A stretch of 42,031 bases of DNA. Origin: Escherichia phage vB_EcoS-Ro145clw. The first letter of the stretch is position 1; the number at the start of each line of letters is the position of its first letter. The position numbers were made by a program, and so were the translations under genes. The notes beneath the pieces are model-generated. The model was not told the origin of the DNA. It saw only the letters and a program-made list of their open reading frames with translations, and did no database searches. The stretch is from sequence record MG852086.2; one strand, given 5' to 3'. Shown in pieces: positions 9,337 to 41,543 of the stretch.

Positions 9337-11599
9337 TATCGCTAGCTTGATAGTACGAGTATCCGCAACCGGCGTCGATAAAGTCACATCACAACTGAAC
9401 GGGCTTACTAAAGCCGCAGGCGCTGCGGCTGCCGCCGTTGTCAGCCTGGAAACCGCTAAGCAGGTGTTCAGTGCGCTGGTGGACTCCCAGCGAAACTTCG
9501 ATAAGCTGAACTCCGGCCTCATCACAATGACCGGGAGTGCTGAGAACGCGGCTAAGGCTTTCAGCGTCCTGCAACAGTTCGCGAAAGAAACCCCGTACGG
9601 CCTCAACCAGGCGGTGGAAGGCTTTACTAAACTTGTAGCCCTCGGCCTGAACCCCAGCAAAGAGGCGTTAATCTCCTACGGCAACACCGCCGCTGCGATG
9701 GGTAAAGACCTTAATCAGATGATTGAGGCCGTGGCGGACGCCAGTACATTTGAATTTGAGCGACTGAAAGAGTTCGGTATTAAGTCTTCCCAACAGGCAG
9801 ATACCGTTTCGTTCACGTTCCGCGGCGTAACGACCACAGTTAAGAAGAACTCCGAAGAAATTCAGAAATACCTGCTAAACATCGGTAACACTGATTTCGC
9901 CGGGGCGATGGAAACGCGTTCGAAAACCCTTGACGGGCAGTTATCTAGCCTCGCGGACTCCTTTGACGGCCTTGTACTTGCGGTGGCGCAATCAGGTTTC
10001 GGCGACGCCGTAGGTGAGCAAGCTGCGACAGCGGAAGATGCCATCACGGCCCTAACCGATGCCATCGCGTCTAATGAGATAGCAGCCACGCTCCAGGATT
10101 GGGTGACACTGTTCAATGAATCGTTCAAGTTTATTTCTGACGCTTTGAACGATCTGGCATACGACACCGAGGACAAATCCGTGGATATGTCCGACTCGCT
10201 GGGGACTATCCCGGACGCTATTCGTGAGTGGTTGCCTGACATTCAGCAGACATTCCACGAGGTTATTGCGTGGTTCCAGCGCATTGACGATTACGCGGTC
10301 GCGTTAGGCCAGACCCTCGCCGACGTGTTCGACCCGAGCAAAACGGCAGCGCTAACATTTAAAAACCTGACCGCAGAGGCCGACGCCGCATACGCCGCCA
10401 GCATAAAACGCGCAGAGGCCGAATCACAGGCTATCACCAACAGGTCTAAGCAGCGTAAGAAAGAAATTGAGGAACAGCGCAAGCAGTATGACGAGCGCAA
10501 GAAGCAAGAAATTGACTTAGCCAGCCTTGTTAATAAAAAGAGCGGAAATGGTGGAACCGGAAATACCAACGACAAAGACGCGAAAGCCGCCGCTAAGAAA
10601 GCGGAGCAATTGCGTAAACAGGCCCAGGATTATCTCGACACTTTGGCCCGTCAGAACAACGACGAATTAAAGGCTATTGACGCACAGGAACAGCAGAAAC
10701 TGGCTAAGGCAAAAGAGTTCTACAACCAGGGCGCGTTGGCTCTGAAAGAATACGAGCAAGCAAAAACGGCTATCGTCCTCGAAGCCGGACAAGCACGGCA
10801 GGAAGAGCTGGATAAGCGAGAGAAAGAACGGCAGGAAAAGCAGCAGAAAGGTGAAGACTTCATGGCTCAGATTATGGGTCAGAATGCCGCCGAGCTTGAG
10901 CTTCTGGAAATTCAGGAACAACAAAAACTGGACGTTGCGGACCGATACCGCGAACAGAACCTTATTAATGAGGAGCAGTACCAGGCTGCGGTTAATGCCA
11001 TAAATGACCAATATGCTTTGAAGCGCGCCAACGCTACAGGTAACGCTTTCGGGATGATGGCGGATAACATGAAGGCCTCACTAGGGGAGGCGTCGTCCGC
11101 GTACAAAGCATTCGCTATTGCTCAGGCCACAATCGCCACATACACCTCCGCTATTGAGGCTTATAAATCAGCGTCCGCTATCCCCGTGATTGGCTGGGTT
11201 ATGGGGCCAATTGCCGCCGCCGCCGCCGTAGCCGCCGGTATGGCTAACATAGGTAAGATTCGTTCGGCTCGTGAACAGGGTGGTCAATTATCCGCGGGCC
11301 AGATGTCCACCATCGCTGAACGCGGTAAACCGGAGGTTATCATGCCTGCGGGGGCATCGCGTGTGCGCACCGCGCAGCAGATGAAAGAGATTATGGGGCA
11401 AAACGGCGGAAACTCCGGCGGTGACAGCGTGACAATTGTCAACAACACCACCGGGCGAGTTGATTCTGCGGTAACAGAACGTGATGACGAAGGGCGTTTA
11501 CGTATTATAATCAGTGAAACAGTATCGGCGGCGTTACAGGACAGCAACAGCGCAATCTCTAAGTCACGCCGTGCTACACGAAACCAGCCGGGGTATTAA
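9329..11599 (+). CDS. tail tape measure protein
   Basis: 756 aa from ATG 9329 (SD GAAGG); long coiled-coil middle with repeated EQQKL segments; C-terminal hydrophobic Ala/Gly-rich segment; follows chaperone pair. Confidence 0.8.
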   Translation: MADIASLIVRVSATGVDKVTSQLNGLTKAAGAAAAAVVSLETAKQVFSALVDSQRNFDKLNSGLITMTGSAENAAKAFSVLQQFAKETPYGLNQAVEGFTKLVALGLNPSKEALISYGNTAAAMGKDLNQMIEAVADASTFEFERLKEFGIKSSQQADTVSFTFRGVTTTVKKNSEEIQKYLLNIGNTDFAGAMETRSKTLDGQLSSLADSFDGLVLAVAQSGFGDAVGEQAATAEDAITALTDAIASNEIAATLQDWVTLFNESFKFISDALNDLAYDTEDKSVDMSDSLGTIPDAIREWLPDIQQTFHEVIAWFQRIDDYAVALGQTLADVFDPSKTAALTFKNLTAEADAAYAASIKRAEAESQAITNRSKQRKKEIEEQRKQYDERKKQEIDLASLVNKKSGNGGTGNTNDKDAKAAAKKAEQLRKQAQDYLDTLARQNNDELKAIDAQEQQKLAKAKEFYNQGALALKEYEQAKTAIVLEAGQARQEELDKREKERQEKQQKGEDFMAQIMGQNAAELELLEIQEQQKLDVADRYREQNLINEEQYQAAVNAINDQYALKRANATGNAFGMMADNMKASLGEASSAYKAFAIAQATIATYTSAIEAYKSASAIPVIGWVMGPIAAAAAVAAGMANIGKIRSAREQGGQLSAGQMSTIAERGKPEVIMPAGASRVRTAQQMKEIMGQNGGNSGGDSVTIVNNTTGRVDSAVTERDDEGRLRIIISETVSAALQDSNSAISKSRRATRNQPGY

Positions 11600-31964: not shown

Positions 31965-32257
31965 TGTCGTTAGCAACTGACATCCTGAAACGAAGCGGCC
32001 TCGCGCCGCTGTCACCAAGAGCGAACACCCAGATATACAAGCGCCGCCGTAACGCGCTGTTCCCTGAGATTCAGGCCAGACTCAAAGCTGTCCGCGCCTG
32101 TGGATTCCAGAACGGGAAGGCCGTGAATCTCGGTGAGTTTAAAACAAAGGAACGAGCGGCAATCGCTAATCGGCTATTTAATTACTGGAAATCGCTCGGG
32201 TATGAAGATATTCCGACGAAACCACAGAGACGACAATACATCTGGAGACACAAATAA
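31964..32257 (+). CDS. hypothetical basic protein (97 aa)
   Basis: ATG 31964 overlaps upstream stop (TGATG); Arg/Lys-rich. Confidence 0.4.
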   Translation: MSLATDILKRSGLAPLSPRANTQIYKRRRNALFPEIQARLKAVRACGFQNGKAVNLGEFKTKERAAIANRLFNYWKSLGYEDIPTKPQRRQYIWRHK

Positions 32258-32287
32258 ACCGTTATTAAGATAATTCCTAACCGTGCT

Positions 32288-32327
32288 ATCCTCCAGTTAC
32301 TGCATACTTAATACGCACCTGGAGGAT
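32288..32327 (+). promoter_or_regulatory. stem-loop sequestering the holin ribosome-binding site
   Basis: ATCCTCCAG (32288..32296) pairs perfectly with CTGGAGGAT (32319..32327), which contains the SD GGAGGA for the TTG start at 32333. Confidence 0.35.
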
Positions 32328-32332
32328 TCATC

Positions 32333-32641
32333 TTGGATAAACTTACTGAAACAGTGACAGGCTGGCTTCTGGCTGCCGCACTCGCCGGAGGGGTAATCGG
32401 ACTACGACAACATAAGTCCGCTATTTCCGGCCCTATTGACGGATTCTGCTTTATTGCAACTGGCTTCACCTGCGCCGTATTTGGTGCGCCCCTCGCCGCT
32501 CAATGGTTTGGAATCACGGGCGAGCGCGAAATCGCTGGCCTTGGCTTCATTATCGCTATTCTCTGGATGCCTATCTATTCCCGTCTCTCCGGTATCGTCG
32601 CTGGAGAATACATCGCACGTCGAGGAGGCACAGATGAATGA
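32333..32641 (+). CDS. holin (putative, about 3 transmembrane segments)
   Basis: 102 aa, TTG start with SD GGAGGA 6 nt upstream; three hydrophobic segments and charged C-terminus; immediately upstream of endolysin cassette. Confidence 0.5.
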   Translation: MDKLTETVTGWLLAAALAGGVIGLRQHKSAISGPIDGFCFIATGFTCAVFGAPLAAQWFGITGEREIAGLGFIIAILWMPIYSRLSGIVAGEYIARRGGTDE

Positions 32642-32906
32642 GTTATTCTGGTTCGGCGGTATGCTGGCAATCGGAGGCACATCGCTGTTTAATGTGTATC
32701 ACCCCAGCGTGGACGACGGGCTATTCGGTCGGGTGCTCTATATCCTGACCGCTATTGTCTGCGCCGCCGGATGTATCCACCTGTTACAGGGCAGTATGTC
32801 ACCTACGCTGCCTGAGACATTAATCACATTAGTTGCGCTGCGTCAGATTCGTCATGCGTGGCTGTCGTACGGAGGACATAAGCGTGTCTCGAAACATTTC
32901 AGATAA
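32634..32906 (+). CDS. second small membrane protein of the lysis cassette (holin/antiholin-like, putative)
   Basis: 90 aa from ATG 32634 with SD GAGGAGG 5 nt upstream; two hydrophobic segments. Confidence 0.4.
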   Translation: MNELFWFGGMLAIGGTSLFNVYHPSVDDGLFGRVLYILTAIVCAAGCIHLLQGSMSPTLPETLITLVALRQIRHAWLSYGGHKRVSKHFR

Positions 32907-33372
32907 TGGGCTGCATTTCACCGCCGCGTTCGAGGGGTTCCGCGGGGCCGCCTACCGCGCTACGCCGAACGAGAAGTACCTGACGATAGGCTATGGGCAC
33001 TACGGGCCGGACGTAACACCTGGCAAGACCATCACCCCCGGGCAAGGCCTCCTGCTACTTAATCGTGATATGGCTAAGGCTGCAGCTGCGGTTGATGCTG
33101 CAGCGCACCATTCGCTGACACAGGCACAGTTCGACGCTGTGTGTGACCTGGTCTATAATGCAGGTGCAGGTGTGATTGCAGCTACCACCGGCACGGGTAA
33201 GGCGCTGCGCTCGGGGGATATTGCAACGCTGCGGGCTAAGCTGGCGCTGTTTATCAACCAGAACGGCAAGCCGTTACTCGGCCTGCGGCGCCGTACTGCC
33301 GGACGTCTTGCACTGTTCGACGGTAAACTGTGGCAGGAGGCCGAGGCTATTGGGCGCGCGGTGAAAGGTTGA
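32884..33372 (+). CDS. endolysin, T4-lysozyme-like glycoside hydrolase (GH24)
   Basis: 162 aa from GTG 32884 with SD GGAGGA 7 nt upstream; FEGFRGAAYRATPNEKYLTIGYGH matches the lysozyme catalytic Glu ... TIGxGH motif. Confidence 0.75.
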   Translation: MSRNISDNGLHFTAAFEGFRGAAYRATPNEKYLTIGYGHYGPDVTPGKTITPGQGLLLLNRDMAKAAAAVDAAAHHSLTQAQFDAVCDLVYNAGAGVIAATTGTGKALRSGDIATLRAKLALFINQNGKPLLGLRRRTAGRLALFDGKLWQEAEAIGRAVKG

Positions 33373-33437
33373 CACCTGAGACTAATCCGACGATACTTAA
33401 ATCACCTCCTGTTTCATCCCTCTGCTCTCCAGTTTTA

Positions 33438-33469
33438 TCCCGGCCCTGACCCAGCCGGGATTTTTTTTT
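33438..33469 (+). terminator. strong intrinsic terminator after endolysin
   Basis: TCCCGGC CCTGACCCA GCCGGGA followed by nine T. Confidence 0.7.
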
Positions 33470-33491
33470 ATCTATTTTCTGTAATGACTAG

Positions 33492-35228: not shown

Positions 35229-35407
35229 TTGATATTTTGAGGGCTACAAATGCTGCCGGTGACCTGGTGTTTTGGTTGGCCTTTCTCGGTGTGCTGATAA
35301 AACAACCGACTTTGTTTAACGTTATTCCTCGCTATCTGTGGTGGCCTATGTTTTTAGGCATGGGAGTATCAGGAGTGGCTGGTATCCTTTTGTGGTTTTT
35401 CAAATGA
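35225..35407 (+). CDS. small membrane protein (60 aa, two hydrophobic segments)
   Basis: ATGA-type coupling; hydrophobic. Confidence 0.4.
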   Translation: MIDILRATNAAGDLVFWLAFLGVLIKQPTLFNVIPRYLWWPMFLGMGVSGVAGILLWFFK

Positions 35408-35510
35408 GGCTACTAATCATCCCGAACGCCTGGGCTATCGCTGTAGCTAACGACCATTACGGCGGCGACGGTAAAAGAGCACCACGACACGGCCTATATA
35501 ACTGATACAA

Positions 35511-35530
35511 GCCCTCTACGGAGGGCTTTT
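35511..35530 (+). terminator. intrinsic terminator closing the early plus-strand block
   Basis: GCCCTC TACG GAGGGC followed by TTTT. Confidence 0.6.
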
Positions 35531-35531
35531 C

Positions 35532-35561
35532 TGTACATCCCGCCTAATCCCCTTATATAAT
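35532..35561 (+). promoter_or_regulatory. possible promoter TGTACA-N18-TATAAT upstream of TerS
   Basis: Perfect -10 TATAAT at 35556..35561; weak -35. Confidence 0.3.
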
Positions 35562-35626
35562 CCCTTTAGACGCGTAGGGCGCGTCTGGTGCGCTCTGATG
35601 GTCAGACGCATATGCAAGGGGATTAT

Positions 35627-36172
35627 ATGAAGCTGAAACTCAAGCAGCCATCGCCAGAGGTGGTGCAAGCTGCGCATGAAGAAGCTGTTAGCGCGAACCG
35701 TCGCCGTAAACGGCCGCGCGGTAAACAGAGCCTTTATCAATCGTCCCGTAATTCCGCTGCGTTGTGGGACCCGGACTATTGTGACGAATTGATTCGTTTC
35801 TTCGACCGCACGTCATGGGAACTTGTGCCTACGTCCAAAGGTGACGAACGCCCGCTGATTCAGGATAAGCCACCGTCACTGGCCCGCTTTGCCTTACACA
35901 TCGGCGTCACTATCCCGATTATTAAGCTGTGGCTGCGTGAGATTCCCGCATTTGCAGAAGCCTATGAAACTGCACAGGCGCTGGAAGAGGCGTACTTCAC
36001 TGAGACAGGCGCGGCGGGCATCTCCGCTACGTTTGCCGCTGCGAAGCTGGGCCTTAGCAAAGAGAAACCGGTTGAATCCACCGAAAAAACGGCGCCGACT
36101 GAGATTATTTTCAGTGTTGCAGAGCCTGTAGGTAAAATCGTAACAACGAATATGGGCGAGGTAGAGGAATGA
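35627..36172 (+). CDS. terminase small subunit (putative)
   Basis: 181 aa from ATG 35627 with SD AAGGGG; basic N-terminus; immediately upstream of and overlapping TerL start. Confidence 0.55.
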   Translation: MKLKLKQPSPEVVQAAHEEAVSANRRRKRPRGKQSLYQSSRNSAALWDPDYCDELIRFFDRTSWELVPTSKGDERPLIQDKPPSLARFALHIGVTIPIIKLWLREIPAFAEAYETAQALEEAYFTETGAAGISATFAAAKLGLSKEKPVESTEKTAPTEIIFSVAEPVGKIVTTNMGEVEE

Positions 36173-41047: not shown

Positions 41048-41434
41048 ATGAATCTTAAAGCAACTGTCATGGCAGGAGCATGTTTCATCATCCTGGTTTA
41101 CGCACACGGCATCTACCAGTATCGCAGCGGCTGGAACGAGGGCCGGGCGAATCTCATTTCGCAGCAACAGCAGAAAGCACAAGCTGAGTTAGCGAAGAAA
41201 ACACAACGGCAGCAGCAGGATGAATCAAAGGCCGCGGCCGCTGACAACGAAGGCAAGACGAAATCAGAGGTGATTACCCGTGAAGTCGTTAAGTACATTA
41301 AAACGCCTGGTCGCAGCGTGTGCACTTTCGACCCTGAGCGCGTGCAGCTCAAGTCCCGCGCCGTCGCAAACGCCAATTCCATCCCCGGATACGACGATGA
41401 TGCAGCCGCCGTGCAAACTGGCACCGCCAAGTAG
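41048..41434 (+). CDS. i-spanin (Rz-like, putative)
   Basis: 128 aa; SD AAAGGGGA; N-terminal transmembrane segment then Gln/Lys-rich coiled-coil-like region; contains overlapping lipoprotein ORF. Confidence 0.5.
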   Translation: MNLKATVMAGACFIILVYAHGIYQYRSGWNEGRANLISQQQQKAQAELAKKTQRQQQDESKAAAADNEGKTKSEVITREVVKYIKTPGRSVCTFDPERVQLKSRAVANANSIPGYDDDAAAVQTGTAK

Positions 41435-41543
41435 CGACGCTGACGAGGATTTGGCTGTCGACGTTCAGAACGCCGAATGCGCACGGCAATTGCGCCTGAA
41501 AGTGTTCATGTTGCAGGATTACGTGAGGAATATTCTGGAATAG
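41280..41543 (+). CDS. o-spanin (Rz1-like lipoprotein, putative), overlapping Rz in the +1 frame
   Basis: GTG start with SD GAGGTG; signal peptide ending in lipobox LSAC; Pro-rich mature region; extends past the Rz stop. Confidence 0.45.
   Translation: MKSLSTLKRLVAACALSTLSACSSSPAPSQTPIPSPDTTMMQPPCKLAPPSSDADEDLAVDVQNAECARQLRLKVFMLQDYVRNILE

Follow-up and report, generated by a model that had tools for sequence, protein, structure and literature searches.

The lysis cassette and its setting

The DNA analysed here, 'the window', is a stretch of 42,031 nt from Escherichia phage vB_EcoS-Ro145clw (MG852086.2). It is a rotated copy, with 100% identity, of MH051334 (vB_EcoS-Ro145c2YLVW; Kagunavirus, Guernseyvirinae); in the region of the lysis cassette, window coordinates equal MH051334 record coordinates plus 30102. 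The cassette comprises two holin-family genes and an endolysin gene, and is closed by an intrinsic terminator (Table 1). The product of the first gene matches phrog_2359 (holin; E 1.2e-29) and contains three hydrophobic segments. Its N-terminus, MDKL..., is common to the TTG-started Kagunavirus holin and to ATG-started homologues in Dhillonvirus, with the TTG aligned to the ATG. Holins as a class are small, have one or more transmembrane domains and a charged C-terminus, and are encoded beside an endolysin. We assign the regulated gene to the holin family, its function being predicted from the phrog_2359 match, the hydrophobic segments and the holin-holin-endolysin arrangement. Homologues of the second holin occur in Jerseyvirus and related cassettes.

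Table 1. Genes and regulatory features in and around the lysis cassette (window coordinates)
Feature	Position	Strand	Basis or remarks
Candidate weak promoter-like site P_a, GAGACA-18-GATAAT	32245..32274	+	Promoter scan, 9/12 matches
Candidate sigma70-type promoter P_b	32265..32292	+	-35 TTAAGA 32265-32270; 16-nt spacer; TGn (TGc) 32284-32286; -10 TATCCT 32287-32292
Motif AGATAATTCCTAA	32268..32280	+	Conserved at the DNA level 5' of the hairpin in all Guernseyvirinae lineages; lies in the P_b spacer
Hairpin 5' arm AUCCUCCAG, anti-SD mimic	32288..32296	+	Sequence, predicted fold
Hairpin loop, 22 nt	32297..32318	+	Predicted fold; weak internal UGC/GCA helix
Hairpin 3' arm CUGGAGGAU	32319..32327	+	Sequence; carries Shine-Dalgarno GGAGGA 32321-32326
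First holin-family gene, 102 aa	32333..32641	+	TTG start 32333-32335; GenBank 'holin-like class II'
Second holin-family gene	32634..32906	+	phrog_2508 holin, E 5.8e-34; own SD GAGGAGG
Endolysin (phage lysozyme)	32884..33372	+	PF00959, E 4.7e-27
Intrinsic terminator closing the lysis unit	33441..33470	+	CCCGGC-9-GCCGGG + T9

GenBank starts the endolysin at TTG 32833 (179 aa), which is probably too far 5'. The alternative start used in Table 1, GTG 32884, is preceded at 7 nt by GGAGGA and gives a 23-nt overlap with the end of the second holin gene. The Jerseyvirus, Cornellvirus and Klebsiella-phage cassettes have overlaps of this type, and in the shorter form PF00959 matches from residue 15 onward.

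The terminator that closes the unit is conserved, with covariation of its stem in one relative (L030), and 3' of its T9 tract lies a near-consensus promoter, TTGACT-17-TATATT. On the 5' side, an unbroken run of small hypothetical genes on the + strand, co-oriented and tightly packed, leads straight into the cassette. The run starts after a divergent intergenic region that holds a strong candidate promoter (TTGACA-17-TAAGGT, -10 hexamer from 29053), and from 30360 to the hairpin described below (32288) the scan reports no terminator. The stop codon of the last upstream gene lies 31 nt 5' of the stem of this hairpin, or 15 nt in variants that carry a protease gene.

The spanin genes lie elsewhere, at 41048-41543 (record 10946-11441), outside the lysis cassette and among the head genes, some 8 kb from the holin-holin-endolysin genes on the circular map. 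Lysis functions are therefore split over two transcription contexts.

A hairpin over the holin Shine-Dalgarno sequence

The first-pass annotation of this DNA had pointed out that ATCCTCCAG (32288-32296) is complementary over 9 bp to CTGGAGGAT (32319-32327), and that the latter includes the Shine-Dalgarno sequence GGAGGA of a holin gene that begins with TTG. These coordinates are exact, and GenBank, too, starts the holin-like gene at this TTG. The stem contains five G-C pairs, and the GGAGGA lies 6 nt before the start codon. Folding of 32280-32345 predicts the stem, with a z-score of -3.29; the isolated hairpin has a predicted dG of -14.2 kcal/mol, and a 103-nt context folds with a dG of -21.9 kcal/mol (z -2.75). 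In a transcript that reads through from upstream, the predicted probability that the SD is unpaired is 0.002, and opening it would cost 10.4 kcal/mol. Across the 71 annotated genes the holin translation initiation region (TIR) ranks fourth in predicted occlusion cost, 11.9 kcal/mol against a median of 4.2.

A 9-bp stem by itself is not beyond chance. When loops of 3-30 nt are allowed, the window holds nine hairpins with a perfect 9-bp stem, compared with 4.7 +/- 2.8 in dinucleotide shuffles. We take this one to be real because its arms are under purifying selection, and because they change in a compensatory manner between lineages. Rfam covariance models give no match to 32258-32340 at E values up to 1. 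Nor does the terminator scan of the window report the hairpin (32288-32327): the loop, at 22 nt, exceeds the 3-8 nt of a typical intrinsic terminator, and in place of a U-tract directly 3' of the stem there is the tail UCAUCUUG, with 4-5 U in 8.

Conservation within Kagunavirus

Forty-two Kagunavirus copies were compared: the window, 40 IMG/VR loci and Salmonella phage PK1. Only 1 of the 18 arm columns varies among them, by a change of A to G at 32295 that retains a G-U pair, and the 3' arm does not vary at all (0/9). The TGn and -10-like hexamer that overlap the 5' arm are almost as rigid, with one variable column in nine, the n of TGn. Variation reaches 8 of 22 columns in the loop, and 86 of 100 third-codon positions in the holin gene. 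Judged from these alignments, the conservation of the arms (1/18 versus 86/100) excludes a chance repeat. Some loop variants (L026, L030 and L045) add pairs beside the stem, extending it to 11-14 bp.

The conserved module begins at about 32262 regardless of which gene lies upstream. A mosaic junction is found here, at ~32258-32262: many Kagunavirus genomes, including the relatives L006-L010 and the GenBank matches H44, H52, H53 and others, insert an HslV-like protease gene of ~420 nt before the holin. The protease gene has its stop codon inside GGATAA, a conserved motif, and 3' of it the regulatory module is unchanged.

5' of the hairpin, AGATAATTCCTAA is conserved at the DNA level, and the frame in which it is read differs between the upstream genes. 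This motif shows no significant recurrence elsewhere in the window. The one other match to TGNTATCCT, at 35380, lies inside an ORF and is at chance level, as are the recurrences of RGATWAWTCY and AGGATAATTCCTAA, and no second copy of the 35-nt upstream module was found. These elements thus do not represent a phage-wide promoter or operator motif.

The same hairpin in other lineages

A hairpin is present at the equivalent place in six other lineages: Jerseyvirus, Cornellvirus, phiEap-2-like phages, Klebsiella phages, Dhillonvirus and KW1E. Their sequences differ, and the paired bases change compensatorily. In Dhillonvirus, whose holin is ~50% identical to that of the window, the upstream sequence reads cgTGaTATAGTCCCAGTGAG-CTAAAA-CTTACTGGGACT-T6/7-ATG, a 12-bp stem with a U-tract that reaches the start codon; one divergent locus (L099) has an extra C on one arm and an extra G on the other, so that pairing is kept. 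In KW1E_UTAR, TTGACC-17-TACTAT is followed directly by TCCCCGGA-7-TTCGGGGA-T8-ATG. Jerseyvirus has TGtTAATCTCCGAAGG...CTTTCGGAGATT and a U-tract, then a GTG start; the Cornellvirus-like phages have TGcTAACCTCCGTAGTG...CATTACGGAG, without a U-tract. The phiEap-2-like arrangement is TTGCAG-18-TATACT GCCCCTG...CAGGGGT, and that of the Klebsiella phages TTGCAG-18-TATACT GCCCCCGAAT...ATTCGGGGGT plus a U-tract. The first holins of the other Guernseyvirinae were not detected by tblastn with the holin of the window. These non-homologous proteins nevertheless occupy the same holin-holin-endolysin cassette, with the hairpin directly 5' of it.

Covariation was assessed in 16 representatives, anchored on the invariant T-A...T of the -10-like hexamer, with pairs taken from each sequence's own fold; a MAFFT alignment of all Guernseyvirinae copies falls out of structural register between groups and was not used for pair counts. 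Among the Kagunavirus, Jerseyvirus, Cornellvirus, phiEap-2-like and Klebsiella-phage copies, each of the stem columns d3-d8 shows three to four canonical pair types. Column d4, for instance, is G-C, A-T, T-A or C-G. Every wobble in the stem columns has its G in the 5' arm and its T in the 3' arm, and this one-way pattern, together with the covariation of pair types, identifies the element as an RNA structure of the + strand rather than a protein-binding palindrome.

In all seven lineages the 3' arm contains a G-rich, SD-like run (GGAGGA, GGGA, GGGGA, GGAGA, GGAG, AGGGG or GGGGG) situated 6-11 nt before the start codon, and in none of the seven is there a further SD before the holin start. Folding, covariation and arm conservation all support the sequestration of the SD that the first-pass annotation had put forward. 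We conclude that the hairpin is a conserved + strand RNA structure, predicted to hide the only SD-like sequence of the holin gene.

The lineages differ in how far the hairpin resembles a terminator. U-tract features of a terminator are present at the holin start in four, Jerseyvirus, Klebsiella phage, Dhillonvirus and KW1E. The terminator scan reports the last three; the stem and U-tract of Jerseyvirus, whose loop is beyond the loop limit of the scan, were judged by eye. In the window, Cornellvirus and phiEap-2 the U-tract is absent or weak, and the stem is kept all the same. Pectobacterium phage Wc4-1, which encodes a distant homologue of the holin, has no comparable hairpin, and the architecture is thus not universal for this holin protein family. 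An annotated terminator of fBC-Eco01 was considered as a counterpart and rejected, as it lies inside the holin ORF.

Weak or unusual start codons recur among the first holins, TTG in Kagunavirus and GTG in Jerseyvirus. One Klebsiella-phage-like locus from IMG/VR (L133, ~595-603) has ATT where its siblings have the ATG of the holin, with a TTG three bases 5'.

Candidate promoters at the edge of the stem

In all seven lineages a -10-like hexamer, TAnnnT, lies at the 5' edge of the 5' arm, and its T1, A2 and T6 are invariant in all Guernseyvirinae copies. Weak hexamers carry TGn, the mark of an extended -10; those without TGn are five-of-six matches and/or have a recognizable -35. In the window the hexamer belongs to P_b, which aligns with TGaTATAGT in Dhillonvirus, with TTGCAG-18-TATACT in phiEap-2 and Klebsiella phage, and with TTGACC-17-TACTAT in KW1E. 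The last of these is reported by the promoter scan and ends 1 nt before the stem. P_b is part of the module whose conservation persists in relatives with another upstream gene. Its hexamers match the consensus at 8 of 12 positions, below the threshold of the scan, which for this reason does not report it. With a rough position weight matrix (PWM), built from textbook consensus frequencies, P_b ranks 38 among the ~84,000 positions of the two strands. By the same rough matrix the counterparts of P_b in relatives are within the top 0.01-0.6% of positions, those of Jerseyvirus and Cornellvirus only within the top 0.2-0.6%.

Transcription by sigma70 holoenzyme usually starts 7 nt downstream of the -10 hexamer. 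The 5' arm ends 4-9 nt past the hexamer in every lineage, and so no more than three bases of the arm would be left in the RNA. For P_b the predicted start is ~32299 (A32299), within the loop of the hairpin. We infer that P_b may be an active promoter with this start site, and that the lysis mRNA probably begins inside the hairpin, without the inhibitory arm. The predicted cost of opening the SD drops from 10.4 kcal/mol in read-through RNA to 5.1 in RNA that starts at 32299, and the corresponding predictions are 16.0 versus 0.6 kcal/mol for Dhillonvirus, and 12.1 versus 2.1 for KW1E. In the RNA from 32299 the SD would still be partly paired, with codons 12-14, and 5.1 kcal/mol is close to the genome median.

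The scan does report an alternative, P_a, whose GATAAT (32269-32274) would direct a start at ~32281, and whose transcripts would hold the whole hairpin. Its PWM rank is 658, versus 38 for P_b, and its -35 is not part of the conserved module, the sequence there being different in relatives with another upstream gene. The one Kagunavirus RNA-seq study in the literature searched (PMC12645636) gives timing at the level of genes, reports no start sites and says nothing of the holin.

An insulator with an embedded promoter?

Our proposal, to which we give about an even chance of being right, is that the hairpin insulates the cassette in the manner of T4 gene e: it masks or terminates RNA that reads through from upstream, while the promoter embedded in it makes translatable lysis mRNA. 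Transcription from the small, early-like upstream genes would presumably reach the cassette, which lies on the same strand. In RNA that contains both arms, the anti-SD-like 5' arm would pair with the holin SD and block the binding of 30S subunits at a site already burdened with a weak TTG start, and in relatives with a U-tract the hairpin would also terminate the upstream transcripts, at the holin start codon itself. In the Kagunavirus of the window, the decayed U-tract and long loop suggest that masking of the SD is the main effect. P_b, a weak extended -10 promoter overlapping the 5' arm, would meanwhile start RNA in the loop at ~32299; with the 5' arm missing, the SD of these transcripts would be open, and they would run through both holin genes and the endolysin gene to the terminator at 33441-33470. 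The rate of holin synthesis, and with it the timing of lysis, would then be set by the weak promoter of the cassette and its TTG start, and not by the promoters upstream. An effect of the hairpin on lysis timing is what we infer from this scheme, and the lysis cassette is probably its own transcription unit within an early-looking region.

Several observations sit uneasily with this proposal. P_b is weak by consensus, and P_a, if used, would yield lysis mRNA that bears the hairpin. A sigma70 promoter offers no obvious means of late timing. And because the second holin and the endolysin have SDs of their own, read-through RNA would still express both, making insulation incomplete in the window phage.

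The first-pass annotation saw the hairpin as a translational timer for lysis. One part of this idea holds up: a conserved stem is predicted to occlude the SD of a holin gene with a weak TTG start. A constitutive timer on the lysis mRNA is not supported in this form, since in relatives the hairpin doubles as a terminator and a -10-like hexamer is fixed at the edge of the arm in seven lineages, features that point instead to insulation from upstream transcription. Stated fully, the timer explanation would have all lysis mRNAs start 5' of 32288, at P_a (~32281) or by read-through, and carry the hairpin, which together with the TTG would keep translation of the holin low, such that its critical concentration is reached late. 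The strong predicted occlusion of the SD agrees with this, as do the scan-reported P_a, conserved within Kagunavirus, the tolerance of variants that lengthen the stem, and the recurrence of weak starts (TTG in Kagunavirus, GTG in Jerseyvirus). It leaves unexplained, however, why every lineage has an invariant TAnnnT, with or without TGn, at the 5' edge of the arm—even Cornellvirus, where the T-A-A bases are unpaired—and why good promoters abut the stem in KW1E, phiEap-2 and Klebsiella phage. In Dhillonvirus and KW1E, moreover, stems of 8-12 bp followed by U6-8 would terminate most hairpin-bearing transcripts at the start codon, and P_a is compromised by a -35 outside the conserved module and by a PWM rank of 658 against 38. 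We consider this explanation rather doubtful, though worth keeping in mind. That the element is mainly a terminator or attenuator of the upstream operon, its overlap with the SD a by-product of compact spacing and its Kagunavirus form decayed and leaky, strikes us as unlikely. The stem plus U-tract at the homologous position in Jerseyvirus, Klebsiella phage, Dhillonvirus and KW1E (by eye in the first, by scan in the other three) is what one would expect of it. The window's own version, with a 22-nt loop, 4-5 U in 8 in its tail and no report from the scan, is not, and neither are Cornellvirus and phiEap-2, which lack the U-tract and still preserve their stems by compensatory changes. That the SD-like arm is the 3' one in 7/7 lineages, and contains the sole SD, argues for functional overlap.

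The remaining explanations appear weaker. Instead of insulating passively, the hairpin might act as a regulated switch, together with the invariant AGATAA(A/T)TCCTAA motif and the Kagunavirus loop, which hardly varies. Late in infection a factor encoded by phage or host would bind and activate the embedded promoter or melt the stem; the C/U-rich small transcript made 3' of the endolysin, itself conserved, might also fill this role. We regard this as improbable; if true, it would reveal a dedicated lysis-timing device common to Guernseyvirinae and Dhillonvirus. The 5' stem-loop of ompA protects its mRNA from RNase E, and the hairpin could in principle shield lysis mRNA that starts at ~32281 in the same way, since P_a would put it 6-7 nt from the 5' end. 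This we think very unlikely: the case for P_a is weak on the grounds already given, a stabilizer need not contain the SD, and versions with a U-tract would terminate their own transcripts. Scarcely credible, finally, is a DNA inverted repeat that serves as operator for a dimeric regulator, or that is there by chance. The repeat is a perfect one of 9 bp, and hairpins of this size arise by chance about five times per window, but it is pairing that is conserved and not sequence, with three to four pair types per column and strand-specific G-T wobbles, and chance does not account for arms that vary at 1 of 18 columns beside third-codon positions that vary at 86 of 100.

If the hairpin is indeed an insulator, it is a compact, portable promoter-in-hairpin device that works with host sigma70, and the lineages form a natural series that extends from terminator-plus-mask to mask only. 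The timing of lysis decides burst size and phage fitness, and Kagunavirus, Jerseyvirus and Dhillonvirus are widely used as candidates for therapy and biocontrol; mutations in the arms would offer a clear target for tuning the latent period. There is a caution here for annotators, too, in that the lysis cassette is probably a separate transcription unit inside a region that looks early.

Comparison with known systems

The closest parallel is with T4. According to the passage on gene e in PMC3014915, which cites McPheeters et al. 1986, the ribosome-binding site of the lysozyme gene is buried in an inhibitory structure in long early transcripts, and late promoters located in the DNA that encodes the 5' strand of this structure give rise to transcripts that are well translated. 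The leaders of T4 gene e, soc and I-TevI, as described there, share the logic of an inhibitory hairpin with a promoter inside, and in gene e, as here, a lysis gene lies 3' of earlier transcription and its SD is sequestered by a hairpin. The differences are several. T4 uses a promoter of the gp55 type, TATAAATA, whereas the candidate here is the sigma70-like TATCCT with TGn and is not of that type; the target of the T4 hairpin is the endolysin rather than the holin; and unlike T4, in relatives of the window phage the same hairpin doubles as an intrinsic terminator. The T4 leaders and the window hairpin have no sequence homology, and if the putative embedded promoter is active the two would work alike without being homologues.

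Other systems are less similar. The sdi stem-loop of lambda S likewise lies at the 5' end of a holin mRNA, involves the ribosome-binding region and affects the timing of lysis. It sets the ratio between initiation at Met1, which yields the antiholin, and at Met3, which yields the holin. A dual start of this kind was rejected for the window, where there is a single start (TTG GAT AAA CTT ACT GAA) and no dual-start motif, in which a basic residue would separate two in-frame starts at the N-terminus; the only other start-type codon nearby and in frame in the first holin is GTG at codon 8, which has no SD. In the RNA phages MS2 and Qbeta, translation of the lysis gene is likewise held off by local secondary structure at the start. 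In MS2 this structure is opened by ribosomes that terminate on the coat gene, and such coupling is unlikely here because the upstream stop codon precedes the stem by 31 nt, or 15 nt in the protease variants. Coupling of a terminator to a promoter provides a further likeness, in that relatives have a stem plus U-tract with a 5' arm that abuts or overlaps the -10 hexamer; the window differs in lacking the U-tract and short loop and in having an SD strengthened to GGAGGA, such that the translational role would dominate. In the literature searched, we found no description of this hairpin element for these phage groups.

A candidate small RNA and a second junction

A short conserved transcription unit, a candidate small RNA, follows the endolysin stop codon at 33369-33470 (+). 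A promoter-like TTGACA-17-GATACT with invariant hexamers leads into ~40 nt of C/U-rich sequence, followed by CCCGGC-9-GCCGGG-T9, a terminator whose stem shows covariation across the Kagunavirus and Jerseyvirus copies. The predicted transcript measures ~65 nt (33404-33470). Within the C/U-rich transcript, AUCACCUCCU is identical to 10 nt of the 3' end of 16S rRNA, and the same stretch also contains CCCUCUGCUCUCCAG. There is a weak match to RF02278, a toxic sRNA family in Rfam, at 25.3 bits, below the gathering score of 50. Action in trans on the holin TIR was considered and set aside, the holin being outside the ten best predicted targets of 71; those that score best are TIRs rich in purines, at 41491 and 5123 of the record.

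Another terminator-promoter junction occurs at 35505-35630 (+), where AGCCCTC-tac-GGAGGGCT with its U-tract overlaps TGTACA-18-TATAAT. A strongly structured leader follows, that of the gene which precedes the annotated terminase (35627). The TIR of this gene has a predicted occlusion cost of 13.7 kcal/mol, the third highest in the genome.
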